Source: Candidatus Omnitrophota bacterium (GTDB taxonomy: Bacteria > Omnitrophota > Gorgyraeia > Gygaellales > Profunditerraquicolaceae). Taken from it: a stretch of 42,620 bases of DNA. A program made the translations under genes and the position numbers. The notes beneath the pieces were generated by a model. That model was not told where the DNA came from. It saw only the letters and a list, made by a program, of their open reading frames with translations, and made no database searches. Where the stretch lies: assembly GCA_023818655.1 (NCBI GenBank), contig JAMWCI010000003.1, forward strand, positions 1 through 42,620, in the 5' to 3' direction. This document shows positions 7,267 through 22,875 of this stretch, one piece after another (the stretch's first letter is position 1; every line of letters begins with the position of its first letter).

Positions 7267-9882
7267 TCATCCTTTGCTTAATGCAATATTTTTCTCCGCA
7301 TCCAACTCTGCCACCACCTTCATATTTTCTTTAATTTCTCCGGATAATATTTTCTTGGCCAGAGGGTCTTGGATATATTTTTGAATCGTGCGCTTTAATG
7401 GACGCGCCCCAAAGTTGGCGTCAAACCCCTTCTCGCACAAATACTCCTTTGCCTTAGGGGACACTTCAAGTTTAATCCCCTGTTGAGCCAGCCGTGCGTA
7501 AATAGGCGCTAATTCAATCTCTACTATCTTCTGGATATCGGTTTTACTCAGGGGATTAAAAACAATTATATCGTCTATCCGGTTTAAAAACTCCGGACGG
7601 AAGTTCTTTTTCACTTCACTAAGAAGTTTTTCTTTCATTTCTGTGAATCCATAATCCTGTTTATTTACTTTAAAACCTATAGACGCATGCTGCTGGATAA
7701 TATCCGCGCCGATATTGGAAGTCATAATAATCACTGTATTGTTGAAATTAACAGTCCTGCCTTGTCCGTCGGTGAGGCGACCGTCATCCAGAATCTGTAA
7801 AAGGATATTAAAGACTTCTGGATGCGCCTTTTCAATTTCATCCAAAAGGATTACCGCATAAGGCCTGCGCCGTATCTTTTCCGTAAGCTGTCCTCCTTCT
7901 TCATACCCCACATATCCGGGAGGCGCGCCGATAAGCCGGGAAACGCTAAACTTCTCCATATATTCAGACATATCAATGCGCACCAGCGCATTTTCATCAT
8001 CAAACAAAAACCACGCCAGTGTTTTAGCCAGCTTAGTCTTTCCCACCCCCGTTGGCCCCAAAAAGATAAACGAGCCCATCGGCCTTTTTTCCTCTCCCAA
8101 TCCTGAACGCGCCCTTCGGATACAGTTGGAGATGACGCCCAGCGCTTCATCTTGACCAACGACTTTCTCTCTTAGCCGCTCTTCCATATGTATAAGCTTT
8201 TGGGTATCTGTCTCCATTAATTTAGTCAAAGGAATCCCGGTCCATTCAGAGATAACCTCGGCAATATCCTCTTCGCTTACCGCCTCACGCAACATACCGG
8301 AGCCCTTCTGCAACTGCGCGAGCTTCTCATTATAACCCTTTAGTTCATTTTCTAGGGCAATCAGTTTCCCGTATTTTATCTCAGCTACCTTATCAAGGTT
8401 GCCGATTTTCTCTGCCTGACTAGCCTCGTTCTTTAACTCTTCTATTTTTTTCCTGGCATTCTTTATCTGCACAATTACTCCCTTTTCCTTCTCCCATTGT
8501 TGCTTTTTGCTATCCAGTTCTTTTTTAAGGGTTTCCAGCTCATCCTCTATTTTTTTCAACCTCTCCTGTGAGACGTTGTCTTTTTCTTTCTTTAATGCCT
8601 GCTTCTCTATCTCCAGCTGGATAATCCTGCGTTGCACGCTGTCAATCTCCACAGGCATGCTGTCAATCTCCAGTCTTAGGCGCGAGGCAGCCTCATCCAC
8701 AAGGTCTACGGCTTTATCCGGAAGATGCCTGTCGCTTATGTAACGGGAAGAAAGAGTGGCGGCAGCAACCAGAGCGCTGTCGGTAATCCGCACACCGTGA
8801 TGAATCTCGTATTTCTCCTTAAGTCCACGCAAGATAGCAATAGTATTCGCTACATCCGGCTCATCCACAAATACCGGCTGGAATCGCCTTTCCAGAGCGC
8901 TGTCTTTCTCTATATATTTGCGGTATTCCTCAAGCGTGGTTGCGCCGATACAACGCAGCTGACCACGGGCAAGCAATGGTTTCAACATATTAGAGGCATC
9001 AATTGATCCTTCAGCTGCCCCAGCTCCCACGATAATATGCAACTCGTCTATAAAAAGAATTACCTGGCCGTTTTTGGCCTGTATCTCTTTCAATACTGCC
9101 TTTAAACGGTTTTCAAATTCTCCGCGGAATTTGGTCCCGGCAACCAAAGCGCCCATATCCAAAGCGATTATCCTCTTATCCTTGAGTCCTTCCGGGACAT
9201 CATGAGAAACAATCCGCTGCGCAAGGCCTTCAACAATTGCGGTTTTGCCCACTCCTGCCTCTCCGATTAAAACAGGATTATTCTTGGTTCTGCGCGACAA
9301 TACCTGCATCAACCGACGTATCTCTTTATCGCGTCCGATAACCGGGTCAAGCTTCATCCTGAGAGCAAGCTCTGTTAAATCCATCCCGTATTTTTCCAAG
9401 GCGTTAATTTTTTCTTCCGGATTCTCATCGGTAATCCGGTGACTTCCCCTGATCGCGCTCAAAGCAGAGAGAATCTCTTCTTTTCCTATTCCTCTTTTCT
9501 TTAATTCCTGCGCAAATTTGGAATCGCCATCAGACAAAAAAGCAAGCAGAATATGCTCTCCAGAGATAAACTCATCTTTCATATACTCTGCTTCCTTCTT
9601 GGCGTTGGCAAGAAGTCGGTTAAACCGGTGAGAAAAATAAACATTAAGATTTGCGCCGCTTACTGCCGGATTATTCTTTAATTCCTCTTCCAGTGTTTTG
9701 ATTACGGAAAAGGAAGGCATACCTACTTTATCAAACACTTGCGCCACAAGACTGTCTTCCTGCCTTAATAACGTATATAACAGATGTTCGGGTTCAACCT
9801 GTTGATGACCGGATTCAGTGGCAAAGCTCACGGCATCCTGCAACGCCTCCTGTAACTTAACGGTTAATTTATCTAATCGCAC
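7267..9882 (-). CDS. clpB: ATP-dependent chaperone ClpB
   Basis: 871 aa with two AAA+ modules (GEAGVGKT and GPTGVGKT Walker A) separated by a long coiled-coil middle domain. GTG start is preceded by AAGGAGG. Confidence 0.97.
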
Positions 9883-10299: not shown

Positions 10300-11550
10300 T
10301 TATTCTATCTCATTGGAATGTAATAGCTTATTATAAAGTATTCTCGGTAAATTAACCTTAATTTTTATACCTGTCTGGAGATATTTTATCTCTGTAACCC
10401 CGCCTTGGCGATAAAATAAATTTACGAGGTGCATCCTGGAGTGCGGAATTAATATTTCTTTTTCCACCATCTGTCCGGAGAAGTAAACCTGAATCTTTTC
10501 CAGTAATATATTCAAATTAGTTTTTAATTTTGCCGAAATAAGGGTCGCCCCGGGAAAATCTGTGCTTAGTTTATGCAACCAAAGTTTATCGCTGATGAGG
10601 TCTATTTTATTCAGCGCAGTGACAATATTTTTCTTATCTGCATCCAGCTCCTTTAGAACAACGTATACCGCGCGGGCATGTTCGTATACCCGCGGATGCG
10701 CGGCATCCAAGACATGGATTAATAATTCTGCCTCTCTCACCTCTTCCAACGTGGCTTTAAAGGCCTCTATAAGATGGTGCGGAAGGTTGTGCAGAAAACC
10801 TACTGTGTCGGAAATAATGATATTTTCTCCACCGGGCAACTTAAGACTTTTAAAAACCGGATCCAAGGTAGTGAAAAGGCCGTTATGCACAAACTGGCCG
10901 GCATCCGCCAAAGAATTCATCAACGTAGATTTTCCGGCATTGGTATAACCGACCAGCACCACCACGGGGATAGCGTTTTCTTTTCTTTTTTTACGCATGA
11001 TCAGACGATGACTAGCTATCTGCCTTAGTTCGTTTTTTAACTTGGCAATCCGTCTCCGAATGCGTCTGCGGTCAACTTCCAATTTCTGCTCGCCCGGACC
11101 CCTTGTGCCTATGCCGCCGCCTAAACGAGAAAGGATTATCCCCTTACCGACAAGTCTGGGTAGGAGGTACTCCAATTGCGCCAGCTCTACCTGCATTTTA
11201 CCTTCGGGGCTTTTTGCCCGGCGGCAAAAGATATCCAATATGAGCTGCGTGCGGTCAATAGTCTTTCTACCGATTACCTCTTCAAGGCTCCTCTGCTGTG
11301 TGCCGGAAAGGTCCTCGCTAAAAATGACAGTATCAATATTTTTTTCCTGGGAAAGAACGGCAATCTCCTCGACTTTGCCTCTGCCGATAAGGAAGTTCGG
11401 GGTAAACTTTTCGCAGAAACAGGTGAAGTTATCTACAACGGTTGCCCCGGCAGAAAGAGCCAACTCCTCCAACTCTCCGGCTATATCAGCTATATGCCAG
11501 TTATCCTTATCGGATTTCAGTTTTATAGATACTATCAATGCGCGTTCCAT
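10300..11550 (-). CDS. hflX: GTPase HflX
   Basis: 416 aa with an HflX N-domain, [15 protein letters not shown], and G-domain motifs [14 protein letters not shown] and NKID. Confidence 0.93.
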
Positions 11551-11556
11551 CTTCTC

Positions 11557-12495
11557 TTAACTTGCTCTGATTTTCCGCAGTATCCTTTTAGCGATACTCT
11601 CCGCAGTTTCTTTATCTTTAATTTCTATCCACTCTATGCGTTTATCTTTTCTAAACCAGGTTAACTGTCTTTTTGCGTATAAGCGCGTGCTCCTCTTTAT
11701 TAGCTGTTTGGCTGTTTCTAAATCATAGCGGCCTGCCAGATAACCTTCTAATTCCCTTAGGCCTATAGCATAAGAAGCGGTTCTGCTCAAAGGCATACTT
11801 AAAAGCTTTCTTACTTCATCCAATACGCCATCTTTAAACATCTCCTCCACTCTCTGCTCAATCCTTTTGTGTAAAAGACTGCGTTTAAGATTAAGACAGA
11901 ATATTCGTATATCGTAATTATTGCTTAGGCCGCCGTATCTGACTCTCTGCCACTGTGAAATTGGTTTTCCTGTACTCTCAAATACCTCCAGCGCCCGGAT
12001 AATGCGTTTCGTATCGTGGGGATGAATCTTTTCCGCTGCGGTAGGGTCAACCTTTTTTAGTTTTTCATACAGGAATTCCGCGCCTGCCCCTTCTGCCTGC
12101 CGGTAAAGCCTGCGACGCAACATCTCGTTTCTCTTGGCCCCCCTGAATATCCCGTCAACAACTATGGATATATACAAGCCTGTTCCGCCGACAAAAAGCG
12201 GGGTCTTTCCTCTTTTAATAATATCTCTTACTTTTTTGTTTGCCTGTCGGCTATAGCGGAAAACGTCGTATTCCCTGCGTGGAGAAACAAAGGCTACCAG
12301 ATGATGCGGAACCTCCCTGAGCGCCTTCGGAGAAGGTTGGGCAGAAAGAATCGCCATTCCCTTATAAATCTGCATAGAATCGCAGGAGATTATCTCGGCA
12401 TTAAGTCTTCTAGATAAGACTATAGCCAGACGGCTTTTGCCGATGGCAGTAGGCCCGGTAATAAAAATAATCTTCTTTCTGGGGTTCAACTTCAC
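11557..12495 (-). CDS. miaA: tRNA dimethylallyltransferase
   Basis: P-loop GPTAIGKS, then DSMQIYKGM and GGTGLY, all typical MiaA motifs. Confidence 0.93.
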   Translation of the reverse strand: MKLNPRKKIIFITGPTAIGKSRLAIVLSRRLNAEIISCDSMQIYKGMAILSAQPSPKALREVPHHLVAFVSPRREYDVFRYSRQANKKVRDIIKRGKTPLFVGGTGLYISIVVDGIFRGAKRNEMLRRRLYRQAEGAGAEFLYEKLKKVDPTAAEKIHPHDTKRIIRALEVFESTGKPISQWQRVRYGGLSNNYDIRIFCLNLKRSLLHKRIEQRVEEMFKDGVLDEVRKLLSMPLSRTASYAIGLRELEGYLAGRYDLETAKQLIKRSTRLYAKRQLTWFRKDKRIEWIEIKDKETAESIAKRILRKIRAS

Positions 12496-13265
12496 GGACA
12501 GATTTTTGTGGGATAGCCCTGGCTAGACAATTTTTCTGCCATACGGGCAATCTCCTTGCGGTTAGTAGTGTTACCTACGAGGACGCGGTAATAGTCTTTA
12601 CCTGCGATAACTACTTCTTTGGTATACGCAGGATACCCCTTAGAAACCAACTCCCGCGCCAGGTTCTTGGCATTGACGGGATTAGCAAAACAGCCTACCT
12701 GCACAGTATAAAATAGTTGAGAACCGATGTTTTTGTCAATATAACATATGTCCTGACTGGTCAAGGCCTCTACTTCAGAGGGAAACTCGCTCTTTAGCTT
12801 CTCCCTGTAATCAATACCTTCTTGAGCATTGCCCGAATCAAAGGCGATTTTACTAAGTCGGTAATACAGCTGTGGTTTAAGTTTTGTCTGCGGGTTTGCC
12901 CGTAAAAGCTGAAGATAACAGGTTTTGGCTTTTTCAAGATTTCCTCTTAAAAGATACGTATCGCCTAAAGCCAGCTCCGCCTCCTCTTTAAATCTGCAGG
13001 GCTTGATTTCAGATAGCAATATCTCAAAAATATCAGAGGCGCGTAAATAATTTCCTATTTTCAGGTAACTTAAACCGAGCAAATAATACAATTCATCTGA
13101 GCCGGAAGAGTCCTTCGTTGCTGCCAATATTTTCTCCCCTTCTGATATAGCTGCATTGTAATCCCCATCAAGGAAATAAACCTTCATCGTATCTAAATTA
13201 TTCGCAGCATACGTATAGCTAAATAATATGATAAATAAGAAGATCCAAATTACTATCCGTTTCAT
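12492..13265 (-). CDS. TPR-repeat and SPOR-domain protein with signal peptide
   Basis: N-terminal hydrophobic leader, TPR-like repeats, and a C-terminal FYTVQVGCFANPVNAKNLARELVSKGYPAYTKEV...YYRVLVG that is SPOR-like. 4-nt overlaps with both neighbours. Confidence 0.7.
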   Translation of the reverse strand: MKRIVIWIFLFIILFSYTYAANNLDTMKVYFLDGDYNAAISEGEKILAATKDSSGSDELYYLLGLSYLKIGNYLRASDIFEILLSEIKPCRFKEEAELALGDTYLLRGNLEKAKTCYLQLLRANPQTKLKPQLYYRLSKIAFDSGNAQEGIDYREKLKSEFPSEVEALTSQDICYIDKNIGSQLFYTVQVGCFANPVNAKNLARELVSKGYPAYTKEVVIAGKDYYRVLVGNTTNRKEIARMAEKLSSQGYPTKICP

Positions 13266-14383
13266 CTTTTCTTCAGCGATATCCTTTTTTGCAGCTCCAA
13301 TATAAGGCTATGCCTTCTTTCTTTTTCTTTTTTATCCACATCATCCGATAAAGAGGCAGCCTGCGTATGCGGTCTGACAGAATATTTAAAGATATAGGCA
13401 GCGTCAAATCCTACGTTATTTACCAATTCATAGGTATCTTGGAAATCCTCCTTGGTTTCGGTGGGAAAACCAACAATGATATCCGTGGTTAATGTCCCGT
13501 TTTTTACTATTTTACGATAATTCTCCACCAAATCCAAATAAAATTCTCTGGTATAACCGCGGTTCATAAGTTTAAGTATCCTGTTTGAGCCGGATTGCAC
13601 AGGAAGGTGCAGATATTTTTTTAGTTTATCCGCATCATTCATCGCTTGGAATAATTTAGCAGTTGTGTCCTTCGGATGGGTAGTAATGAAACTGAACTCT
13701 TTCAGGCCATTAACGGAATTAACAAGCTTAAGAAGCTCAATGAAATTAACCTCTTTATAATTATACATATTGACGTTCTGGCCGAGAAGCGTAATCTTAG
13801 TTATCCCGGCGTCAATATCCTCCTTTATCTCAGCAAGGATATCTGAATAAGGTCTGGAGCGCAATCTCCCGCGCACATAAGGAACCACACAGTATGCGCA
13901 ATAGTTTTCGCAGCCCTCGGATACCACCACAAAGGCATGTTCCTTATCCAGATGGAATCCGGTGTGATAAATTTCATCCTCTCTGTGATCACTATCTGTC
14001 TCATAGATTTTCTTGGCTAAAAACGAGTCTTTATGTTTTTCTATCTCGGCGATTATTAAAGGAATCTTGGCGATGTCGGATGTCCCCACCACAAAATCTA
14101 CCTCTGGCGCCTTATCAAAGATTGCCTGTCGGTAGTTGGTTGCCATACATCCAACAATGCCAATAATCTTGGCCTTGACCCTGCCTATTGCTGACCAAAC
14201 CTTATCCTCTGCGTGCTGGCGTACGGAGCAGGTGTTAAAAATTACTATATCTGCCTTATCCTCATCATCGCTAATCTGATAACCCTGCCTCTCAAGAAGG
14301 CCGCAGATTACTTCCGAATCCCGCACATTCATCTGGCAGCCGAAGGTTTTCAGGAATACTTTTTTCTTATTGTCTCTCATCAC
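13262..14383 (-). CDS. miaB: MiaB-type radical SAM methylthiotransferase lacking a TRAM domain
   Basis: TFGCQMN N-terminal cluster motif and radical SAM CENYCAYC. The protein ends about where TRAM normally begins. Lies in a cluster with miaA. Confidence 0.85.
   Translation of the reverse strand: MMRDNKKKVFLKTFGCQMNVRDSEVICGLLERQGYQISDDEDKADIVIFNTCSVRQHAEDKVWSAIGRVKAKIIGIVGCMATNYRQAIFDKAPEVDFVVGTSDIAKIPLIIAEIEKHKDSFLAKKIYETDSDHREDEIYHTGFHLDKEHAFVVVSEGCENYCAYCVVPYVRGRLRSRPYSDILAEIKEDIDAGITKITLLGQNVNMYNYKEVNFIELLKLVNSVNGLKEFSFITTHPKDTTAKLFQAMNDADKLKKYLHLPVQSGSNRILKLMNRGYTREFYLDLVENYRKIVKNGTLTTDIIVGFPTETKEDFQDTYELVNNVGFDAAYIFKYSVRPHTQAASLSDDVDKKEKERRHSLILELQKRISLKKR
14330..14347. repeat. 18-bp direct repeat copy 1 (inside miaB codons for TFGCQM)
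   Basis: CATCTGGCAGCCGAAGGT is identical to 15143-15160. Confidence 0.9.
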
Positions 14384-14441: not shown

Positions 14442-14993
14442 CTAAAACTTCTTCCTAAAGTCGGCGCCGTATCGTTTAAGTTTTTTTGCATCTAATTCAA
14501 TAACCTTTTTAATCCAATTTCTTTTTATAAAGGGAATAACGCCCTGAATATAATCATAGGTTGGGATGTCGTGAATTCTAAAAACCGGCTGCCAATCTAT
14601 TTTTGAATCGGGTTTACGCTTAAACTCCATACAATACTCCAACAATATATTCCACCTATTATAAGAACTAAGCAAAATAACATCCTGTGGTATTTTAAGG
14701 ACAAGTGCTACTTTATTTTTTAAGCCATACTCATAAGAAGAATATAGTTGAGTAATTGCCATATAAAATGCTTTCTCTGAATACGATCTTTGAATCCACA
14801 CCCAAATTAAAGCGCTGCGCGGTTTGATCCCTTTCTTATGCTGATATTGCTCTTCCAGCCAGCGATAGGCGTACTTCCAGTTAACAGGAATATACTTCTT
14901 TGGACAAATCAGAAATTCACCCTTTTGGTTCAAGAAACTTTTATCCTGGAGTGTCCAAATAAAACTCTCTTCTCTCTGCCCACCTATTTTCAT
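14442..14993 (-). CDS. hypothetical protein, DUF3841-like
   Basis: The pattern IWTLQ...KGEFLI....YAYRWLEEQYQHK...ALIWVW resembles my recollection of DUF3841 proteins. I prefer the ATG at 14993 (AAGAGGGG upstream) over the GTG at 15014. Confidence 0.45.
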   Translation of the reverse strand: MKIGGQREESFIWTLQDKSFLNQKGEFLICPKKYIPVNWKYAYRWLEEQYQHKKGIKPRSALIWVWIQRSYSEKAFYMAITQLYSSYEYGLKNKVALVLKIPQDVILLSSYNRWNILLEYCMEFKRKPDSKIDWQPVFRIHDIPTYDYIQGVIPFIKRNWIKKVIELDAKKLKRYGADFRKKF

Positions 14994-15142
14994 CTGGCTA
15001 CCCCTCTTAGACACGGTGCATTATTTTTCCACTTACGCACGGTTCCATAAAATAATTTCCCGTAACCATATGTCAGACAATTCATTAACTCTTGCTATAC
15101 ACACCTTCTAAAAAATGTACAATTGACATGTAAGAACGACAC

Positions 15143-15184
15143 CATCTGGCAGCCGAAGGTCCGGATTAAAACTTTTTTATTCAT
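15143..15184 (-). pseudogene. orphan 5' relic of a methylthiotransferase gene (14 codons) containing 18-bp direct repeat copy 2
   Basis: ATGAATAAAAAAGTTTTAATCCGGACCTTCGGCTGCCAGATG translates to MNKKVLIRTFGCQM. Homology stops abruptly after the Met. The last 18 nt are identical to 14330-14347. Confidence 0.65.
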
Positions 15185-15190
15185 ATTTAT

Positions 15191-15394
15191 TTAGCCACAA
15201 TTAATGAGTTCGTTCAAGGCAAAACACTCGGCAGAATAGCCGCTAATGCCGTAGTCTTGATAAACCTTGAATACCTCAAGACCTTCACGCTTAGCAAAAG
15301 ATTCAAGATATTCTCGCTGTACCTCAAGAGAATATCCCTCTTTAGCTTGCTCCTCTTAATCTATTTGACAAACAGCGAAGCTGCCGAAAAACAT
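15191..15394 (-). pseudogene. decayed N-terminal relic of a serine recombinase/resolvase
   Basis: My translation is MFFGSFAVCQID*EEQAKEGYSLEVQREYLESFAKREGLEVFKVYQDYGISGYSAECFALNELINCG*. It matches the (RVST)EEQ..G.SL.aQ......a...g......D.G.SG pattern. There is a stop where the catalytic Ser region should be, and it is truncated after about 67 codons. Confidence 0.6.
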
Positions 15395-15407
15395 CAAAAT
15401 CGCCCAC

Positions 15408-15763
15408 AAAAAAGTTTTTTCTTTTGAATTCTTTGCCCCCTTTAATTTTTTGTATTTAGAGGAAAAACAAAAATGCCAAACCAAGAAGCTAAAAAGAGTT
15501 ACAAATTTTTTGCCCCCAAAGTCTTTATCCGGACTTTCGGCTGACCTTATGCTTCGACTTTACAATACGCTTTATTCGTTCTTTAAAATTCAATGAACTT
15601 TAGGCGTCGCGCCTGGGCCGGCGCTCCCGTATCTCGTATGCTGCCGTTCGCCCGACATAGGTCTGGCGGGCCACTTGGCGTCCTCTTCCTCGCAAAAATC
15701 CTAAATAAAAATTCCTTTTTTATTGCGGCGGCGGCCAAAAATTTTTAAAAGGTGTTTGATTTC
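15408..15763. repeat. long imperfect inverted repeat, left copy (IR-L)
   Basis: The reverse complement aligns with 19004-19461 (blocks roughly 80-90 percent identical by eye), minus a ~105-nt insertion present only in the right copy. The inner end abuts the stop codon of the 15763-16185 gene. Confidence 0.85.
15473..15544 (+). pseudogene. methylthiotransferase 5' relic embedded in IR-L
   Basis: GAGGAAAAACAAAA precedes an ATG and the peptide MPNQEAKKSYKFFAPKVFIRTFG*. AAAGTCTTTATCCGGACTTTCGGCTG matches the 15143-15184 relic at 23 of 26 nt. Confidence 0.55.
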
Positions 15764-16185
15764 TATTGAATCTTCTTTAAATCCCGCCAATGATATTGCT
15801 TCACTTTACCTTTTCCATCAACAGAAAATATGTACAATAATAGTTTATTTGCAACTTGCCAAGGAATGCGCCTAACGGCTATTTTTGCAACTGAAGCAGG
15901 AAGACCTAGACCATAATAATAACGTGCCGCACCTGCTTTCATCCGGGTTATAACTTGACCCAGGGAATAAACAAATGCTACTTCTCTGGCAGATTCAGCA
16001 GACTTGCTTGATGATTCTCCTTTTGTTTCAATAAAAAAGTAGCGAGCATATTTATTATGGCGGACCTTTATATCTACCCCATGCTCCGCTGTTTCCTTTT
16101 CGCGTAATCCTCTATCCCATCCCTTTCTTGCTAAAAAATTTATTACTGAACGTCTAACAAACCTTTCTGTGATAATTCTTGGCAT
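15763..16185 (-). CDS. small PD-(D/E)xK-type nuclease-fold protein, candidate restriction endonuclease
   Basis: 140 aa. HGVDIKV (D38) followed 15 residues later by FFIETKG (E53, K55) gives a D-x14-E-x-K motif. It is the last gene of the methyltransferase operon. Confidence 0.5.
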   Translation of the reverse strand: MPRIITERFVRRSVINFLARKGWDRGLREKETAEHGVDIKVRHNKYARYFFIETKGESSSKSAESAREVAFVYSLGQVITRMKAGAARYYYGLGLPASVAKIAVRRIPWQVANKLLLYIFSVDGKGKVKQYHWRDLKKIQ

Positions 16186-16202
16186 ATTTTATCCTTCGGT
16201 AT

Positions 16203-16952
16203 TTATTGCTTTTCAAACACAAATAAATGTTCATGCATTATGAGTAAAAAATTATATTCTTTCGACTTTTCGGCCCAATAAGAAGTAGTTTCACAATTCC
16301 ATTGTTGCTTGATTATATCTTCCTTGAGCTTAAATCCCACATCCAGAAAAAGCTGCATTACTCTATAAGATATAGGTGTAAAGTATGTCTTCCTCCTTGT
16401 GTCACCAATTAGTATTCCACAATATTTCTTGGGTTTTAAAACTCTGAAGCACTCTAAGGCGACCTTTTTCATTTCCTTACAGAACTTATCAATATCATGG
16501 ATATTAGATAAATCCTCATCAATTTTTCCGTCACTATATTTGATAATATCTACGTATGGCGGATGGGTTGCAATTAAATCAACTGAATTATCTTTTACAT
16601 CTTTAAGATTTCTGGCATCTCCCACTTTTACAGAAATCTCAGTTTTAGGAACATCTGTATCTGCATCAAATTTAAGATTGTTCTTTGTTATTTCTACCAT
16701 CTTTGGATTTATGTCAAACCCGATTGCATTTCTTCCGGTAAGCTTACACTCAATCAAAGTGGTACCACATCCACACATCTGATCTAAAACTAAATCTTTT
16801 GGTTTGGAGTAGCGAATGATAAGATTACGGGGAATCTGAGGAGCCCAATTGCCTCTAAAGTTCGGTTGGTGAATGGCCCATTTGCCTCTTTCAGGAAAAG
16901 ACCATACTGTTGTTGTTTCTAATTTAAAATCTTTGTGGTGAACATCATTCAT
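16203..16952 (-). CDS. DNA N4/N6 amino-methyltransferase (xPPY type)
   Basis: 249 aa with WSFP..G..HQPNF.G.WAPQIPRNLIIRYSKPKDLVLDQMCGCGTT (SAM-binding block), then DLIATHPPY (catalytic), then RVLKPKKYCGILIG. Confidence 0.85.
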   Translation of the reverse strand: MNDVHHKDFKLETTTVWSFPERGKWAIHQPNFRGNWAPQIPRNLIIRYSKPKDLVLDQMCGCGTTLIECKLTGRNAIGFDINPKMVEITKNNLKFDADTDVPKTEISVKVGDARNLKDVKDNSVDLIATHPPYVDIIKYSDGKIDEDLSNIHDIDKFCKEMKKVALECFRVLKPKKYCGILIGDTRRKTYFTPISYRVMQLFLDVGFKLKEDIIKQQWNCETTSYWAEKSKEYNFLLIMHEHLFVFEKQ

Positions 16953-16974
16953 ATTTATAATACTATTTGACTTA

Positions 16975-17541
16975 CTATCTTCTGGCTCTACCAGCTGCTA
17001 AGGTTGCTGTAGAAAGAACACGAAATAAATCGTCCCCTCTCTTTAAGCCATCTAATACTCTCTTAAACATATATGCATCTGCTCGATTCGTCTTTTCCTG
17101 TAACATCAATAATTTTGCTAAGAGAATCAGAAATTTTATACTATATTCGCCTTTGTTGCTTAACTCTTTAAACTTATCTATTTCCTTCGCGCTAATATTG
17201 AGTAGCGTTTTCAAATCTAAAGATTGCCTTTCTTGTTCGCTCTTGAGTGGCACGGTTTTGTTCCAAATATCAATAAAGAAATCTAAGAATTCTTGTGTTA
17301 AGTCTCTGTATGATTGCATTTTCATTAAAATATCAACGGTCCAGTGGATATGCTTTGGGGTTCTAATATTCGACCATTTTTCATTCTTCAATTTTTGCCT
17401 ATATTTAATTAGTATATCAAATGGGCTTAGCGAACCTTTATAAATAGCTATTATCGTGCTTTCATTAATCTGAAACGCTTTGATAGGAACGTGCTCAACG
17501 CCTTTTTTCCTAAAATTCATTTTTGGTAACTCTATCGCCAT
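16975..17541 (-). CDS. hypothetical protein between the two methyltransferase genes (candidate restriction or specificity partner)
   Basis: 188 aa from the ATG at 17541, preceded by GGGAGGG; the track TTG at 17559 is probably spurious. I recognised no family and no clear nuclease motif. Confidence 0.5.
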   Translation of the reverse strand: MAIELPKMNFRKKGVEHVPIKAFQINESTIIAIYKGSLSPFDILIKYRQKLKNEKWSNIRTPKHIHWTVDILMKMQSYRDLTQEFLDFFIDIWNKTVPLKSEQERQSLDLKTLLNISAKEIDKFKELSNKGEYSIKFLILLAKLLMLQEKTNRADAYMFKRVLDGLKRGDDLFRVLSTATLAAGRARR

Positions 17542-17555
17542 GGTACCCTCCCTAA

Positions 17556-18590
17556 TCAATAATTTAATATTACTAACTCATTAATCTCTCCCCTACCCGA
17601 AGCCTTACAATTAATTGCTCTTTTAGCTTGCACAATCGCAATCCTAAATCCTTTGTAAAGTTTCCGAATTAAAGGTGTATCAGAATTACTCAACATAACT
17701 TTACACCCTCTTTTGTCCAATTCTCTGAAGACCTGACAAAGCTTTCTTTGTTCCTCTTCTCTAAAAGGATTCTTTGTATAACTGGTAAAACTAGATGTTT
17801 TGTTTAAAGGCTGATATGGCGGGTCAAAATAGATAAAATCTTCTTTTTTGGCGAGTTTCAGACATCTATCAAAATCGTCGCATAAGATTTCAACATTCTG
17901 CAAAGCAGAACTTACTGCAATTAGGTTTCTAGAATTGCAAATCAAAGGATTTTTATAGCCACCAAAAGGAACATTGAATTTACCCTTACTGTTCACCCGG
18001 TACAATCCATTAAAACATGTCTTATTTAAATATATGGTCCTCGCAGCCCTTTCAAACTTATCTTTAGGTTCTTCAGCGCGGATTTTATAAAATGTCTCTT
18101 CTGTGTTAATAAATTTAGGGCTACTTAGAATTTTTATCAGCTTTTCTACGTCTTCCTTGATAACTAAATAACAATTAATGAGCTCTTCATTGGAATCAAT
18201 CAGAAATATTTTCTTTTTGCCTTGTAATCTTCCGCTATTAAAGAGATGGAAGAACACAGCGCCACCGCCAACAAAAGGCTCAAGAAAATTATTAAATTCC
18301 TTTGGGAAAAATGTTCCGTATTGTCTTAAAAGTTGGCCTTTGCCACCCGCCCACTTTAAAAAAGGTTCTGCGCGAGTAGGAATCCGCAAAGCAGCGCTTT
18401 CCTGCGCAGTAATAACAATTGAACTCATCTCATTTGCTTCAAGCCAGGCATCAACCTTTTCAAGCCGAAAACGCCACTGGTTCTCAATTCTTGAAACCGG
18501 AATTTTCCCTTGCTGAGCAAGTTTATAAACTTTCTCTTTGCTCATCTGGAGATATTCGGCAACATCTTTAATGGTTAGCAGCTTATCCAT
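17556..18590 (-). CDS. Dam-class DNA adenine methyltransferase with N-terminal excisionase/MerR-type HTH
   Basis: N-terminus is MDKLLTIKDVAEYLQMSKEKVYKLAQQGKIPVSRIENQWRF (HTH). This is followed by KWAGGK, EPFVGGGAVFF (motif I) and IYFDPPY (motif IV). The track starts at the TTG at 18608. Confidence 0.85.
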   Translation of the reverse strand: MDKLLTIKDVAEYLQMSKEKVYKLAQQGKIPVSRIENQWRFRLEKVDAWLEANEMSSIVITAQESAALRIPTRAEPFLKWAGGKGQLLRQYGTFFPKEFNNFLEPFVGGGAVFFHLFNSGRLQGKKKIFLIDSNEELINCYLVIKEDVEKLIKILSSPKFINTEETFYKIRAEEPKDKFERAARTIYLNKTCFNGLYRVNSKGKFNVPFGGYKNPLICNSRNLIAVSSALQNVEILCDDFDRCLKLAKKEDFIYFDPPYQPLNKTSSFTSYTKNPFREEEQRKLCQVFRELDKRGCKVMLSNSDTPLIRKLYKGFRIAIVQAKRAINCKASGRGEINELVILNY

Positions 18591-18612
18591 TTTGTAGCCT
18601 TTATACAAAAAA

Positions 18613-18637
18613 TACTAAAGAATACTATTATTTACTA
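18613..18637 (-). promoter_or_regulatory. three 10-bp-phased TAGTA repeats in the methyltransferase 5' leader (possible operator)
   Basis: Plus-strand tacta occurs at 18613-18617, 18623-18627 and 18633-18637 with exact 10-bp spacing, between the predicted -10 and the start codon. Confidence 0.3.
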
Positions 18638-18640
18638 ATT

Positions 18641-18669
18641 ATTATAATTCTTACTCCAATGTTAATCAA
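18641..18669 (-). promoter_or_regulatory. sigma70-like promoter of the R-M operon
   Basis: Minus strand reads TTGATT (18669-18664), a 17-nt spacer, then TATAAT (18646-18641). Confidence 0.45.
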
Positions 18670-18684
18670 GTTAATAGTATAAAT

Positions 18685-18733
18685 AAAAAACCTTCGCGCG
18701 CTACGGTGAGCATGGACTCAAAGCACGTGAAGG
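18685..18733 (-). terminator. intrinsic-terminator-like hairpin, potentially bidirectional
   Basis: An 11-position stem ccttcgcgcgc/gcacgtgaagg (one mismatch, one G-U) is flanked by an A6 run on one side and TTTTACTTTTTTT on the other. Confidence 0.4.
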
Positions 18734-18795
18734 TTTTACTTTTTTTAACGTCCGGGTTCCCCCTTCGAAACGCGGGACGAACAACTCTATTTATA
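18685..18795 (-). ncRNA. candidate ~110-nt small RNA or attenuated leader upstream of the R-M operon
   Basis: It is bounded by the predicted promoter at 18802-18830 and the terminator-like hairpin at 18691-18733. It has a GC-rich internal segment (GTCCCGCGTTTCGAAGGGGGAACCCGGAC). I recognised no family. Confidence 0.25.
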
Positions 18796-18801
18796 ATTGT
18801 A

Positions 18802-18830
18802 TTTATACCATAGAGATTTCTACTTGTCAA
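18802..18830 (-). promoter_or_regulatory. sigma70-like promoter for the candidate small RNA
   Basis: Minus strand reads TTGACA (18830-18825), a 17-nt spacer, then TATAAA (18807-18802). Confidence 0.4.
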
Positions 18831-18839
18831 CACATATTC

Positions 18840-19003
18840 CTCTAAGGCAAGCAGGCACACAAAGGGCGCTGCGAAAGCCCGAAGGGCTGAAGCCGCCCGA
18901 CTGTGACTGCTATGTAATCATCCCACCGCTTCCGCGAGAGATTCGGCTTCCCCGCCCGCAACTCCTGATTAAGTTGCGGGCGGGGGCGGACTCTGCCGAG
19001 CAA
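18840..19003. other. GC-rich hairpin-dense non-coding segment
   Basis: Much higher GC than the surroundings by eye. Nested stems include GAAGCCG...CGGCTTC and a perfect 13-bp stem CCCCGCCCGCAAC/GTTGCGGGCGGGG at 18950-18985. Confidence 0.6.
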
Positions 19004-19092
19004 AAATCAAACACCTTTTAAAAAATTTTTGGCCGCCAACGCAATAAAAGAAGACTTTTTATTTAGGATTTTTGCGAGGAAGAGGACGCAAA

Positions 19093-19134
19093 GTGTTTGG
19101 CGAATTTTACCCCCACCCAAAATTCGCCAAACAC
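19093..19134. other. perfect 16-bp stem-loop inside the IR-R-specific insertion
   Basis: GTGTTTGGCGAATTTT-acccccaccc-AAAATTCGCCAAACAC. Confidence 0.8.
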
Positions 19135-19324
19135 GAAAAGCCGAATCGGACACGCTCACGCATTAGCTCGAAGCCCCGCCCCAGCGGGGCGCCAAGTGAG
19201 GCCTGCGCCCACGCAGGCCGAACGGTAGCATGCGAGATACGGGAGCGCCGGCCAAGGCGCGGTGCCTAAAGTTCATTGAATCTTAAAGAACAAAAACAAG
19301 GCATTGTAAAGCCGAAGCATAAGG

Positions 19325-19390
19325 CCAGCCGAAAGTCCTGAGATAGACTTTTGGGCCAGAATTCTTGTAAGTTTTTGTTTTGTCTGACAT
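19325..19390 (-). pseudogene. methylthiotransferase 5' relic embedded in IR-R
   Basis: Minus strand reads ATGTCAGAC...AAAGTCTATCTCAGGACTTTCGGCTGG, giving MSDKTKTYKNSGPKVYLRTFGW. It is collinear with the IR-L relic. Confidence 0.5.
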
Positions 19391-19540
19391 TGCAGTTTTT
19401 GTTTTTCCTCTAAATACAAAAAATTAAAAGGGGCAAAGAATTCAAAAGAAAAAACTTTTTTAAAAAACAGAGACGTTCCCAAAAGGGACACCATCTCAGA
19501 TCTTAATTTTTTCAAGATCATTTCTAAAATACCATCAATA

Positions 19541-20626
19541 TTACCAACATGAAAGGTTGCCAAAACGTCCTTTAATAGCATGGTATAAAAACATGAGCCG
19601 CTCCTTTAAGTTGTCTCTCATCCCTAAATATACCCAACCCTCTCCGGTAAACACTGATTTTGCCCGTAAAACCGTAGAGAGGAATCTCTTTTCAAAAATA
19701 CTGATTTTTCTTGGTGTTAAATTCTGCAAGAGCCCCTCAGGCAGCGGGGTATCTAAAATTTGGGAAGACAGGAATAATGCGTAATACAGCTGCTTATACA
19801 ATCCGGTTTTCTCCGCCTCTTTCATTAGATTATCCCACGCAAAACCTCCGGACATATATCGCAGCAATAATTCATTAATATCGCAAAGAAGTATCAAAGG
19901 ATAAAAACAGTGATTTACGGCGTGCATAGCAAGGTATATAAGCAGATGTTCTTGGGAGAAGGTATACAGAGAAATTCCTCTTAAATCTATAGGTTGAGCC
20001 TTCTGCCATATATCTTCCATATCCAAGGTATGCGGAAGGTGCCGATTATTGCTCAGGTGCACATGGATATCAACAGGGATTTTGTTTTTATCCTGATTAA
20101 AATAAAGAAAAGAATCACAGTAATAACTAAAGCATAATTCTTTAAAATACCCATCGCTGTATGTAGATGTATACCCAAGCTGCCTTAAGACCTTATTTAC
20201 CTTAAGCAGATCATCTTTTCTTACTAAGAGATCTATATCTGCGCAACCCCTTAGACCGATATCTCCGTAAATTAATTCTGCAAGCATAATCCCTTTAAAG
20301 ATAATCGTCGGGATATTCTCCGCTTCAAAATTAGATATTATATTTTTTAATTGGGCTGTACAGAAAATATTCCTGCTGTAAGTAGAATAATAACTGCTCT
20401 TTAGGGATTCCTGTATCTGGAATGGTATAAGTCCATTTAATTCGGAAAACTTTAAGAGGGATTTATAAACTATCGGTAAAAGCAGGTTAATTCTGGCCTT
20501 CTCCAAAAAATAAGCCCAGTTTAAATCAGGGCTTAAGATTTCTTTTATTTTCTCTCCTGCGTCGTCAAGCCTTCTTTTGGCGCAATAACGCAAAAAAATA
20601 TCTTCTTGTTTTATTTTCACTTGCAC
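19541..20626 (-). CDS. nucleotidyltransferase-family protein (uncharacterised NTase type seen in RiPP loci)
   Basis: 361 aa. GLRGCADIDLLVRKDDLLKVNKVLRQLGY fits the G-x-x-D-x-D polymerase-beta-like NTase motif. The GTG start has no SD and overlaps the stop of the 48-codon ORF (TAGTG). Confidence 0.65.
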   Translation of the reverse strand: MQVKIKQEDIFLRYCAKRRLDDAGEKIKEILSPDLNWAYFLEKARINLLLPIVYKSLLKFSELNGLIPFQIQESLKSSYYSTYSRNIFCTAQLKNIISNFEAENIPTIIFKGIMLAELIYGDIGLRGCADIDLLVRKDDLLKVNKVLRQLGYTSTYSDGYFKELCFSYYCDSFLYFNQDKNKIPVDIHVHLSNNRHLPHTLDMEDIWQKAQPIDLRGISLYTFSQEHLLIYLAMHAVNHCFYPLILLCDINELLLRYMSGGFAWDNLMKEAEKTGLYKQLYYALFLSSQILDTPLPEGLLQNLTPRKISIFEKRFLSTVLRAKSVFTGEGWVYLGMRDNLKERLMFLYHAIKGRFGNLSCW

Positions 20627-20772
20627 TATGAAGAAAGTCTAGTGCAACTTGGCATTGACTTTCTGCAATTTAAAAATCCTCCACGGCTAGAATCGCAAAC
20701 TGCAGCCAGCACCTCTATTTTTTTTTCATAAATGACTGCTGGTTTCTGATAATTCCTCTTTTTCCTCTCCAT
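20626..20772 (-). CDS. candidate RiPP precursor peptide (48 aa), not in ORF track
   Basis: My translation is MERKKRNYQKPAVIYEKKIEVLAAVCDSSRGGFLNCRKSMPSCTRLSS. The ATG at 20772 is preceded by AAGGAG with an 8-nt spacer. It overlaps the last 47 nt of the rSAM gene in another frame, and its stop overlaps the NTase GTG. Confidence 0.5.
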   Translation of the reverse strand: MERKKRNYQKPAVIYEKKIEVLAAVCDSSRGGFLNCRKSMPSCTRLSS

Positions 20773-21802
20773 ATTTACTTCTCCTTTTCTCGTAGACATT
20801 TTTAAACACCAGCGCTAAACGGCAATCCAAAGAAGAAGCGCCTAAAAGATTACCGTGTTCAAGAAGGGATAATCCCATGCAATGATTGCAATACCCTACC
20901 AATCCGCATTGCCTGCAGTTATAAAAATCCTGAGCGTCTATTGCCCTAAAGTTATTAAAATTACTGGAATTCCAGATTTCCTGAAACCTCTCCCTAAGTA
21001 AACTACCCATATTCTTTTTGAGGAAAATGCAAGGATAGAGATTGCCTGAGCTAGAGATAAAAAAACTGTTTATGCCGGCAGCACAGAGGAGCGCATCTAA
21101 AGAGGCATCCTGACGCCGAGATACAAGGATATTATTTTCCGAGAAAACGTCCTCTATCTGGCTCTTCTCTAACCCTAATCTGGATACATCTATCGAACCA
21201 TCATCTGCGGGAGTCATGGTAAAATCAAATTGAAATTCAACTCCGTTGTCTTGGCAAAAATACTTAATAGGATTAAACTCTGCGAGATTTTCTTTCATAA
21301 ACAGAGTTTTTACGACTACCTTTATCTCCCTCTTTCTCAACAGCTTTATCGCCCTAATCACTAATTCCTGCGAACCAATCATTCCGGTTATCCTGTCATG
21401 AATGACAGGATTGAGCGCATACAAACTCACATCCACGCTCAGGGGATTTAAGGCATTTATTTTATCGGCGGCATCCTCATCGATAAGCGTAGCATTAGTT
21501 AAAAGTCTGATAGCAAAATTTTTCTTCCTGCTATATCCTGCGATTTCAAAAAAATCCTTGCGCAGCAGAATCTCTCCTCCGGTAAAAGAAAGATAAAGAG
21601 TGCCCAAATCAGCCAACTCATCAAGGATAGATTTTATTTTAACTAAAGGTAGGCCATAGCACTGCCTCTGTCTTCCCAGATAACAATGATAACAGTTTAA
21701 GTTACAGTTTGTATTCAACTCCCATTGTCCGACAAAAGGAATATTTTTTTTCATAGTCTTCTGATACAGTTCGCTATAATAATCCCTTGCGTCCTCTGGC
21801 AT
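20726..21802 (-). CDS. radical SAM/SPASM-domain peptide maturase
   Basis: CNLNCYHCY (CxxxCxxC) cluster motif, plus a C-terminal Cys-rich SPASM-like region (CAAGINSFFISSSGNLYPC...CRQCGLVGYCNHC). Confidence 0.88.
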   Translation of the reverse strand: MPEDARDYYSELYQKTMKKNIPFVGQWELNTNCNLNCYHCYLGRQRQCYGLPLVKIKSILDELADLGTLYLSFTGGEILLRKDFFEIAGYSRKKNFAIRLLTNATLIDEDAADKINALNPLSVDVSLYALNPVIHDRITGMIGSQELVIRAIKLLRKREIKVVVKTLFMKENLAEFNPIKYFCQDNGVEFQFDFTMTPADDGSIDVSRLGLEKSQIEDVFSENNILVSRRQDASLDALLCAAGINSFFISSSGNLYPCIFLKKNMGSLLRERFQEIWNSSNFNNFRAIDAQDFYNCRQCGLVGYCNHCMGLSLLEHGNLLGASSLDCRLALVFKNVYEKRRSKYGEEKEELSETSSHL

Positions 21803-21806
21803 TGTT

Positions 21807-22091
21807 CTAGTCTTTATCCTTTAAAAAAATTATTCCTTTGGCAGCTATTTCTTCAAGAAAGGCGGCGCTTTCTTCAGTGGCCCGCAATGCGGAAACCTCA
21901 AACTCTTCGGTAACCGCAGTGACAATCTCCTGAAAACTTCTTCTACCATCAATAAGCTCCCAGATGTAGGTCCCAACCTCATTTAAGACTATAACACGAC
22001 TTTCTTTAGTAAGCACAATTATCGACTCTCCATCCACTGTGCGCCACGCAACTTCGGGGGATTTAAAAGGAATTTTACCTTTCCACAGCAT
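21807..22091 (-). CDS. PqqD-family peptide chaperone (RiPP recognition element)
   Basis: 94 aa. AWRTVDGESIIVLTKESRVIVLNEVGTYIWELIDGRRSFQEIV is a typical PqqD pattern. Confidence 0.8.
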   Translation of the reverse strand: MLWKGKIPFKSPEVAWRTVDGESIIVLTKESRVIVLNEVGTYIWELIDGRRSFQEIVTAVTEEFEVSALRATEESAAFLEEIAAKGIIFLKDKD

Positions 22092-22875
22092 CTATGCACC
22101 TCCAGAAACTATCATCTTTGGTAAAATGCAATTCGTAAAACGGAATCTTCTCCAATAAATCGTGGTAATTATCCATAATCCGCTCAAATGGCAAAAATTC
22201 TGCGGGAATGTGAGGAATAGTAAATAACTCCGTTATTGCACTTGCCTTATTTATTTTTTTCAAATAAGCCTCTTTGTCCTGGACTAACTTGAAGATGGCG
22301 CCAATATTATAGGCGGTATTTTTCTTCTCGCCAAAGCTATAATCCTGCCAACAAGGAGTGGCATAGGTAAAAAAATTGTCGTCGGTTTTCTTAACCACAG
22401 CGTGGTCATCGCTTAACACAATGCAGTTCTTGGATAGTCTGGAGATAGTAGTCTTTCCGCTTCCAGAGCGTCCGTTAAAGATATACACCTTGTTTCCCTT
22501 TAGAACTGCGCTGGCATGGAATACAAACGCATCGTCTTCAATTATTAATAACAGTGTAAAAACATTTCTTATAAAAGCGCTCAATGCCCAAGGCAACCCC
22601 TGTAAGTTGATTTTTGCCCCACCTTTTTTTGTTCTAAAATCAAAAAAACCATCAAGATATTCTTCTCTGATCCTACATAAATCATCTTCAAAAGTAAGGC
22701 ATGCTTCTAATGGCTGCACATAATGGATTTCATCGGTAGTCTCTAATTCTAAGTGTATACGAGGGAATTTTTCTGAAAAGAAAGGATAGTAATCTCTATT
22801 TAAAATCTCAAGAAAACATTCTTGGTTAAAGGTTAAAGCCGCAACTATCTCTGCAATTTCAATTTTAATCTGCAT
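22075..22875 (-). CDS. HPr kinase-related (HprK-like) P-loop protein
   Basis: 266 aa. FHASAVLKGNKVYIFNGRSGSGKTTISRLSKNCIVLSDDHAVV resembles the HprK/P catalytic core (G.SG.GKS/T ... DD). Confidence 0.65.
   Translation of the reverse strand: MQIKIEIAEIVAALTFNQECFLEILNRDYYPFFSEKFPRIHLELETTDEIHYVQPLEACLTFEDDLCRIREEYLDGFFDFRTKKGGAKINLQGLPWALSAFIRNVFTLLLIIEDDAFVFHASAVLKGNKVYIFNGRSGSGKTTISRLSKNCIVLSDDHAVVKKTDDNFFTYATPCWQDYSFGEKKNTAYNIGAIFKLVQDKEAYLKKINKASAITELFTIPHIPAEFLPFERIMDNYHDLLEKIPFYELHFTKDDSFWRCIDAVER

Follow-up and report, generated by a model that had tools for sequence, protein, structure and literature searches.

Long inverted repeat around methyltransferase genes of an Omnitrophota bacterium: probable attachment-site modules of a decayed serine-recombinase island at miaB

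Insertions by large serine recombinases (LSRs), such as SPbeta (SprA), skin (SpoIVCA, or CisA) and A118, split genes which are restored only on excision. In a different arrangement, found in the C segment of P1 (Cin), the G segment of Mu (Gin) and the 2-micron circle (FLP), a unique segment lies between inverted repeats of hundreds of bases containing the crossover sites; Cin and Gin are small serine invertases, FLP is a tyrosine recombinase, and both orientations occur in populations. In the present study we analyse a stretch of 42,620 nucleotides from a Candidatus Omnitrophota bacterium (the window; contig JAMWCI010000003.1, assembly GCA_023818655.1, positions 1 to 42,620 of the forward strand), in which two long inverted repeat arms enclose a group of methyltransferase genes near the tRNA-modification gene miaB. 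The staphylococcal cassette chromosome (SCC, SCCmec) comprises islands of the Ccr LSRs at a fixed site by an RNA-modification gene, with tandem arrays that include trans-mobilised cassettes and with defence cargo (PMC11470126). The dusA-specific islands and prophages integrate at the start of a tRNA-modification gene and substitute sequence of their own for its 5' end, the gene remaining functional (PMC4482086).

We propose that the two arms are modules carrying the attachment sites of an LSR island, now decayed, which had inserted at the 5' end of miaB, a reading to which we give a probability of about 75%. An odd pair of inverted repeats of 350 and 460 nt thus becomes readable as the attachment modules of a site-specific island. 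Literature searches (serine recombinase with miaB, Omnitrophota with serine recombinase, and miaB with attB and integrase) returned no description of a miaB-targeting serine-recombinase island, and the family is apparently widespread and undescribed.

The inverted repeat, its modules and the miaB target

An earlier annotation of this DNA made from its letters alone (the sequence-only reading) had reported a long imperfect inverted repeat around the cassette. The repeat is real and joins 15408-15762 to 19004-19461 in three collinear blocks found by repeat search, with which MAFFT and blastn agree (blastn E = 1e-73 and 3e-32, far exceeding chance):

15408-15653 and 19216-19461: inverted block 1, 246 nt, 84% identity
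15672-15750 and 19017-19095: inverted block 2, 79 nt, 91% identity
15737-15762 and 19004-19029: inverted block 3, 26 nt, 96% identity

As described there, the same end of both arms points inward, with AAATCAAACACC, and the left arm, ending at 15762, abuts the stop codon of the last cargo open reading frame (ORF), which starts at 15763 (15763-16185, minus strand). No further arm copy was found in the window by blastn and a core-site search. Several points of the earlier description had to be changed. The supposed insertion of about 105 nt in the right copy is a deletion of about 102 nt in the left arm: right-arm 19096-19215 corresponds to just 18 nt (15654-15671) on the left, and the stretch is retained in the related loci L001, L004, L005, L013, L014 and L016a, partly in L002, with diverged counterparts in L009, L010 and L016b, so that the left arm underwent the deletion. 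Furthermore, the right copy does not end at 19004, since the conserved element runs on through what had been called a GC-rich hairpin block to about 18680. On the left side only, the conserved module reaches about 22 nt beyond the repeat, starting from 15386. We cut the modules from the right-hand unit (P5 19461-19326, S1 19325-19004, S2 19003-18841, S3 18840-18680). The features on which the argument rests are the following:

19326-19461, minus strand: P5 of site 1, outer right arm; partial recombinase-tail frame ..KKVFSFEFFAPFNFLYLEEKQK.., ribosome-binding site (RBS), ATG and miaB-like codons MSDKTKTYKNSGPKVYLRTFG
19326-19333, minus strand: core TTCGGCTG, closing right-arm P5
19004-19325, minus strand: full copy of S1, inner right arm; half-site-like start GCCTTATGCTTCGGCTTTACAAT, TTACA at +17 to +21, hairpins H1-H4
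18841-19003, minus strand: S2, with a 15-bp hairpin CCCCGCCCGCAACTT/GAGTTGCGGGCGGGG
18680-18840, minus strand: S3; TTGACA-N17-TATAAA promoter-like site at about 18830-18802, then about 100 nt to a compound hairpin and T-run
15386-15543, plus strand: P5 of site 2, outer left arm and 22 nt beyond the repeat; full inverted recombinase-tail coding (KNIKIAHKKVFSFEFFAPFN..), surrogate miaB start MPNQEAKKSYKFFAPKVFIRTFG
15536-15543, plus strand: core closing left-arm P5
15544-15762, plus strand: internal inverted copy of S1, inner left arm; lacks H3 and H4 owing to the deletion of about 102 nt
15191-15394, minus strand: LSR relic of 65 codons, about residues 3-62
15090-15184, minus strand: 5'/T site; MNKKVLIRTFG, core 15150-15157, then CCAGATGGTGTCGTTCTTACATGTCAATTGTACA-N16-TATAGC
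14442-15014, minus strand: DUF3841 gene, placed between the 5'/T site and the miaB start now in use; presumably the cargo carried by the T-type cassette
13262-14383, minus strand: miaB-like methylthiotransferase, the target; UPF0004 and radical SAM domains, starting ..KKKVFLKTFGCQMNVRDSE
14337-14344, minus strand: core of the 5'/M site in miaB (KKKVFLKTFG/CQMNVRDSE)

Here and below a site is written as its left half and its right half with a slash between them.

From the outer end, each arm consists of an A/T-rich stretch, an RBS, an ATG, about 22 codons and a GC-rich, hairpin-rich non-coding stretch. The peptide of about 22 codons terminates in KV(F/Y)(I/L)RTFG, which is the N-terminus of MiaB. 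The resemblance to miaB ceases directly after TTCGGCTG in every copy, and this suggested TTCGGCTG as the recombination core. Its general form, TTYGGNTG, is present at all four sites of the window and at every site in the relatives, and the window has three occurrences of the 13-mer GGACYTTCGGCTG as against 0.1 expected. The fourth copy of the miaB N-terminal codons, at 15184-15150, adjoins the relic; the 5'/T site which contains it has the appearance of the left-hand junction of a recombinase-less cassette that arrived later and brought a promoter of its own, and DUF3841 appears to be a separate single-gene cassette acquired later than the methyltransferase island. The flank of miaB in the window (miaB, TPR/SPOR, miaA, hflX, ClpB, hrcA, dnaK) is syntenic with related loci. 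No tRNA or tmRNA gene offered itself as another integration target.

Right-arm S1 holds a stem of 17 bp with a loop of 8 nt, and the inner end of S1 resembles a decayed 5'/T site. S2 is a conserved continuation of the left end of the island (87-92% identical in L003, L004, L005 and L016). S3, 94% identical in L004 and with counterparts at 619-777 of L004 and in L003 and L005, is a candidate small RNA or insulator with no Rfam match. The promoter-like sites of P5, T and S3 were recognised by conservation only, a promoter and terminator scan having passed over them on account of -10 hexamers with a final A or C.

Two other identities were considered for parts of the arms and rejected. The short ORF of the arms (M..KV(F/Y)(I/L)RTFG..), lying near radical-SAM genes, is no precursor of a ribosomally synthesised and post-translationally modified peptide (RiPP), as it is the N-terminus of miaB joined to non-coding S1. 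Nor is S a group I or II intron in miaB: it has no Rfam match and no miaB continuation, and cargo and recombinase lie beyond it.

Recombinase family and layout of the related loci

The sequence-only reading had noticed a decayed serine recombinase just outside the left arm, and this relic is genuine, being identical at 36 of 51 positions (71%) to residues 12-62 of an intact family member. It carries an in-frame stop at the catalytic-serine motif and the remainder of the gene is lost, so the window copy is probably immobile. The LSR domains are accordingly not encoded in the window; intact genes of 541-563 aa stand at the homologous position in L010-L020, and the intact family recombinases carry the Pfam domains Resolvase, Recombinase and Zn_ribbon_recom. 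The window island is a decayed member of this LSR family. Of 8000 candidates scored, 891 were homologues at E < 1e-30, the best 120 being 63-86% identical and coming from metagenome-assembled genomes (MAGs) named Omnitrophota, Nitrospirota, Saganbacteria, Elusimicrobia and others. To serine integrases annotated in phages and plasmids the family recombinase shows an identity of only about 30%, the best annotated matches including "CisA" and "serine integrase".

The comparison drew on eighteen related contigs, the loci being labelled L001-L020. The 21-mer common to both arms led to two MAG contigs, among species-representative genomes, and to five true metagenome contigs; the metagenome matches L006-L008 were discarded as chance matches in high-GC coding sequence, and ten further contigs (L011-L020) were obtained through the recombinase homologues. 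No match was given by a scan of viral contigs with the S1 21-mer or by a search of the plasmid collection with the P5-S1-S2-S3 DNA. In every true 21-mer match S begins directly after a miaB-like N-terminus, and the codons before S, ..(I/V/L)x(I/L)(K/R)(T/S)(F/Y)G plus core, are synonymously different between loci. L010 has an intact 541-aa LSR homologous to the relic, followed by a promoter-like stretch as in the left arm and by MPNQESKKSYEFFAPKVFIRTFG joined to CQMNVRDAE.. and an intact miaB. The same continuation of an intact recombinase into P5/miaB is found in eight contigs altogether (L010, L011, L012, L013, L017, L018, L019, L020). Downstream of recombinase and miaB, L011, L012, L013 and L017-L020 carry miaA, hflX, hrcA, grpE and dnaK, matching the synteny that the window shows leftward of 14383. 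The exceptions to this common target are L014, in a conjugative context, and L016, with a T-type junction.

Read in the direction of recombinase and miaB, the layout is [5'/S1-S2(-S3)], cargo, [inverted S1/P5], ORFx and recombinase, [P5/target]. L011, L018 and L020 have a small MerR/HTH gene upstream. The inverted P5 upstream of the recombinase operon recurs in the window, L010-L014, L016, L017, L019 and L020 (L012 has just a 66-nt piece, where its contig stops), followed by S1 in all contigs long enough to show it, and three loci (the window, L016 and L017) have the complete series of direct S, cargo and inverted S1 in assembled form. In L004, S1 and S3 are 92-94% and S2 is 87% identical to the window, the cargo is entirely different, and the innermost 52 nt of S1 reappear in inverted orientation directly behind the last gene. 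The long inverted repeat is thus the normal design of the island family, the right arm representing the outer-left junction, from which S2 and S3 follow on, and the left arm the inverted module that the family conserves internally. It is not a common dispersed element unrelated to the cassette, an outcome which the sequence-only reading had left room for; it accompanies the island family and its defence cargo.

Eight contigs end in or beside P5 or S1 (L001, L002, L003, L010, L011, L012, L013 and L016). Such ends are expected where inverted repeats break short-read assembly, and coexisting orientations could also contribute.

P5 is read in two frames, one encoding the last ~54 residues of the recombinase and the other the surrogate RBS, ATG and miaB N-terminus. 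The recombinase ORF extends through P5, and its tail, ..LLF/KNIKIAxKxxFSFxFFAPFN.., is conserved as protein across P5 types; in L018 there are extra residues and the frame is still open. Tail coding is complete from KNIKIA (15386) in the left arm, and the right arm lacks its first 22 nt. When joined to miaB the recombinase ORF stops 8 nt past the core (541-551 aa), and when joined to S, T or other sequence it is 53-74 nt longer (561-563 aa). By these predicted protein lengths the state of integration would change the C-terminus of the recombinase. The tail falls outside the alignments to annotated serine integrases, which stop near residue 495, and may be a family-specific extension or simply read-through.

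The clearest breakpoints are those of L017. Its S1 pair (5262-5467 and 7971-8176; 206 nt, 99% identical) begins to be identical at the core, its P5 pair (8165-8320 and 11487-11642; 156 nt, 100% identical) ceases to be identical at the core, and both pairs have the middle site in common. Since identity breaks at the core, a site identical to the internal one is divided reciprocally between the two outer sites. As judged by comparison of the sequences, breakpoints of this kind are what site-specific exchange leaves behind. Within L013, L014, L016, L017, L019 and L020 the two P5 copies are 90-100% identical, and P5 types differ between loci. L002 contains a recombinase-P5/S1 junction such as an excised circle, a tandem insertion or the other isomer would have.

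Three kinds of right half are found after the core: M, the body of miaB (CCAGATGAAyg...); S, which is S1 (RCCTTATGCTTCGGCTTTACAAT...); and T, yCAGATGGnnnCGTTnTTACA.. followed by TTTACA-N16-TATAAT. The motif TTACA at +17 to +21 from the core is common to S and T (CTACA in L017 and L018) and absent from M. We infer that S and T are island-side half-sites, the left ends of islands lying at 5'/S and 5'/T, that M is the chromosomal half-site, and that the LSR cuts at the core TTYGGNTG. T sites stand ahead of single genes or small groups: three upstream of the L017 island, one after the L016 recombinase and one in the window. Recombinase-less T cassettes would seem to accrete in tandem, each bringing a promoter and a new miaB start.

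The core sites of L017 are at 269, 2568, 3750 and 5273. Within L017 1-5273, direct 5'/T sites ending at 269, 2568 and 3750 precede DeoC/MTHFR, a 332-aa ORF and SBF-like/GDT1 genes, respectively, in an integron-like cassette array; each of these sites has a different miaB-like start and a TTTACA-N16-TATAAT promoter.

According to our proposal, the LSR of the island would insert at a fixed point of miaB, between the ..TFG and CQMN.. codons and after the core TTYGGNTG. The module would comprise the dual-frame P5, the crossover core and S1, the first ~23 nt of S1 looking like the recombinase half-site on the island side. Because the island layout ends in P5/miaB, miaB would always keep a promoter and a start codon. 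For the window we envisage, at the least, an S-type island with methyltransferase cargo which would have lost most of its recombinase gene and later acquired the T-type DUF3841 cassette. A free circular island would carry two identical inverted P5/S1 sites separating the cargo bay from the recombinase module, and excision would close the chromosome as 5'/CCAGATGAA. More speculatively, the internal inverted copy could permit flipping, integration via either site, or bidirectional insulation of the cargo from the recombinase operon.

Further members of the family depart from this design. L014/L015 11483-21692 lies in a conjugative context (TraG_N, a relaxase-like protein and a coupling protein) and not at miaB; there, two additional miaB-like cores (12693 and 18215) are followed by right halves of a fourth kind (ACCGTTGG.. 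and GCCGATGG..). In L009 (2310-2700) a diverged S1 has no recognisable miaB-like start ahead of it and contains two different perfect 18-bp hairpins with the common loop CCGCCGCC; it is followed by cargo consisting of an XRE-type controller-like gene, a 215-aa ORF and a 671-aa methyltransferase, and then by an inverted S3-like piece (5908-5950). L003 (23-82) and L005 (633-692) have in S1 a 60-nt insertion with two GC-rich hairpins, absent from all other copies, which may be a small mobile palindromic element.

Alternative explanations and described systems

Several observations weigh against the attachment-site reading. The identity of the arms is a mosaic (65/66 in the outer 66 nt, about 60% in the next ~45 nt, then 85-92%, by MAFFT) for which a simple history does not fully account. 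Right-arm P5 is closer to island P5 than to a native promoter and lacks the first 22 nt; it may be a leftover of an earlier resident island or a product of gene conversion. Canonical LSRs recombine only the phage site attP with the bacterial site attB, and by this rule the internal site has no obvious reaction partner. The recombinase of the window is dead, and comparison of the sequences gave no recombination product, circle or alternative orientation for the window. The relic precedes a non-P5 site (5'd/T) and not the expected P5/T, so that extra deletions must be assumed. Among the relatives L010 carries two different P5 types and L018 is the sole exception without an inverted copy; all the comparison loci are metagenomic contigs, many of them broken inside the repeat.

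The sequence-only reading had also regarded the arms as a possible substrate for inversion of the whole cassette. They would then be the working sites of an invertible 3.8-kb S1-cargo-S1 segment, turned by a serine recombinase or by homologous recombination and switching the cargo relative to the inward P5 promoters. The geometry allows this, as the two cores are inverted (15536-15543, plus strand; 19326-19333, minus strand) with the relic of a recombinase gene alongside, and the exact matches between the arms, up to 34 nt by MAFFT, would permit a rare RecA-type inversion. Repeat copies that are 99-100% identical within L017, L020 and L013 despite the divergence of the family suggest ongoing exchange, and many related contigs break within the repeat. 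However, with the recombinase reduced to 65 codons and stopped at its catalytic motif, any present-day inversion in the window would need homologous recombination. Both arms are of one site type (5'/S), whereas LSRs normally pair unlike sites, and a flip at the cores would regenerate P5/S1 junctions of the same kind and thus would provide no obvious switch. In all five readable loci (window, L004, L014, L016, L017) the cargo is co-oriented with recombinase and miaB, S2/S3 lie beside the outer site in three of three loci, and the left arm lacks 102 nt. An active invertase and both orientations, by which invertible segments are recognised, are therefore not what is found, and we consider this explanation unlikely. 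What does recall the 2-micron circle is the putative free island, which two identical inverted repeats would split into two unique parts; it differs from the invertible segments in its integrase-type LSR, in the one orientation of all readable loci and in junction types unaffected by flipping. A transposon-like R-M (restriction-modification) cassette that transposes as a unit, with the arms as its terminal inverted repeats, is far less probable still. In its favour, the cargo is flanked exactly by long inverted repeats, whose inner boundary is seen again in L004 and L014. Nevertheless, no transposase domain is present in any scanned ORF of the window, as had been stated before, or of the relatives, and the associated enzyme is always an LSR outside the repeat-flanked cargo. 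Between identical flanks the cargo of the window and of L004 is wholly different, the arms terminate outwardly in the 3' coding part of the recombinase gene and in miaB-like codons and not in transposon ends, and the same modules also join to miaB. The former view of the arms as remnants of a mobile R-M cassette thus holds in so far as the locus is a decayed integrative island, but the arms are not repeats of the transposon type and R-M is interchangeable cargo.

More can be said for S1 as chiefly a structured non-coding RNA gene transcribed from P5, with an RNA function in regulation of recombination or cargo or in insulation and with the attachment role secondary, although on balance we find this rather doubtful. 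H1-H4 are retained in all full S1 copies, even where the sequence is replaced (L009; L013/L014/L016b). RNAalifold shows pairs changed on both sides in H1 and H3, and in the seven variants of H4 pairing is complete (100%), both partners having changed in 14 of 15 pairs, which none of 500 shuffles matches; the H4 set, however, was selected as hairpins. The 12-sequence S1 alignment gave RNAalifold only 9 pairs, because an alignment made from sequence only puts several hairpins out of register. G-U pairs are commoner on the P5-to-S1 strand in 8 of 10 copies, a slight bias; a promoter-like region, RBS and short ORF lie directly upstream of S1, and S3 has its own promoter-like site, hairpin and T-run. 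Against this, Rfam 15 gave no match over the whole window at the gathering score and only chance-level matches over 15000-19800 at E <= 10, and whole-arm folding z-scores are -1.2 and -0.4, neither strand being significant against shuffles (the GC-rich structured core of S1 folds with z = -1 to -6). The left arm has neither H3 nor H4, and the S1 of L017 is far shorter and built differently. Furthermore, perfect palindromes of 15-18 bp around a loop of 8 nt that is itself conserved (CCGCCRCC or the complement) would equally fit symmetric sites for protein binding or sites for single-stranded DNA, like an origin of transfer (oriT), and these too would appear to covary. The structured RNA proposed in the sequence-only reading thus finds partial support in four S1 hairpins with compensatory changes, against which stand the missing Rfam match and the weak folding of the whole arm.

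The attachment-site reading brings the locus closest in logic to SCC, with which the miaB islands share LSR insertion at one fixed site, tandem recombinase-less cassettes and anti-phage cargo; the 5'/T and DUF3841 unit of the window and the three T-type units of L017 resemble satellite cassettes. They differ in the target, which is the 5' end of miaB and not the region downstream of rlmH (orfX), and the Ccr/rlmH combination is not found here. The miaB islands, moreover, supply a promoter, start codon and N-terminus for the target, the 3' end of the recombinase gene overlaps the attachment site, and they have an internal inverted module and an S region of ~650 nt, neither of which is mentioned in the SCC text searched (PMC11470126; no "inverted repeat"). 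Replacement of the 5' end of a tRNA-modification gene is shared with the dusA islands; these, however, use a tyrosine integrase where we find an LSR, and no inverted internal copy or S region is described for them (PMC4482086).

The miaB islands resemble the SPbeta, skin and A118 insertions in their Resolvase, Recombinase and Zn_ribbon_recom domains and in inserting within a protein-coding gene at a fixed short core, but here miaB is kept intact by a 5' end borne on the island, and the elements are islands of ~4-10 kb with defence cargo and not prophages. Cassette arrays of one or a few genes between repeated sites beside one recombinase gene (L017) are reminiscent of integrons, from which they differ in having no IntI tyrosine recombinase and no attC fold, in cassettes with their own promoter (T) and a surrogate start of the target, and in that new cassettes seem to enter at the miaB-proximal end.

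These comparisons lead us to suggest, as a tentative possibility, a serine-recombinase "cassette chromosome" class at miaB in Omnitrophota and other uncultured phyla which has not been described and of which the window would hold a dead copy, with a dual-coded site, two inverted modules, an S1-S3 element of ~650 nt and serial capture of T cassettes. As part of such a class S1-S3 would be a new structured RNA or single-strand DNA element, acting as insulator, regulator or transfer origin. The insertion into an important gene would be harmless, as the promoter, start and N-terminus for miaB are overlapped with the end of the recombinase gene. If the recombinases are active and as site-specific as the junctions suggest, they and their sites of ~50 bp would extend the serine integrases employed in genome engineering by a distant branch, about 30% identical to those characterised.

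Cargo genes and neighbouring cluster

In phyla that are known almost entirely through metagenomes the large island family carries genes of R-M, CBASS, AbiE and toxin-antitoxin-like kinds; across the relatives the cargo varies and is for the most part defence-related, comprising R-M of types I, II and III, CBASS, AbiE, HEPN/NTase, Fic and toxin-antitoxin-like. In the window the cargo comprises the following features:

18669-18641, minus strand: predicted promoter of cargo gene 1
17556-18608, minus strand: cargo gene 1, excisionase-type HTH_17 fused to a Dam-family (D12 class) N6-adenine DNA methyltransferase
16975-17559, minus strand: cargo gene 2, ORF194, with no assignable family, a candidate nuclease
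16203-16952, minus strand: cargo gene 3, N4/N6 Type II DNA methyltransferase
15763-16185, minus strand: cargo gene 4, ORF140, with no assignable family; its stop codon adjoins the left arm

The enclosed four-ORF cassette had been described as a methyltransferase and nuclease operon. The two methyltransferases stand: cargo gene 1 matches the Dam family (TIGR00571, 2e-90) and cargo gene 3 matches PADLOC MTase_II PDLC03376 over its full length (3e-87). The nuclease was not demonstrated by family, PDB or AlphaFold work, as ORF194 and ORF140 have no match in Pfam, NCBIfam or PADLOC, PDB sequence searches gave noise only, and their AlphaFold models, with predicted local distance difference test (pLDDT) values of 45 and 49, are unusable. 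Thus, the methyltransferase part of a Type II R-M system is present, and a cognate endonuclease was not identified among the four cargo ORFs.

Directly upstream of the right arm, on the minus strand, lies a RiPP-like cluster (19541-22875) with the following members:

minus strand, within the cluster: 266-aa ORF with a weak PEPCK_ATP match
21807-22091, minus strand: PqqD
20726-21802, minus strand: radical SAM and SPASM domains
20626-20799, minus strand: 57-aa ORF with a Cys-rich C-terminus, a possible precursor peptide
19541-20626, minus strand: NTP_transf_5

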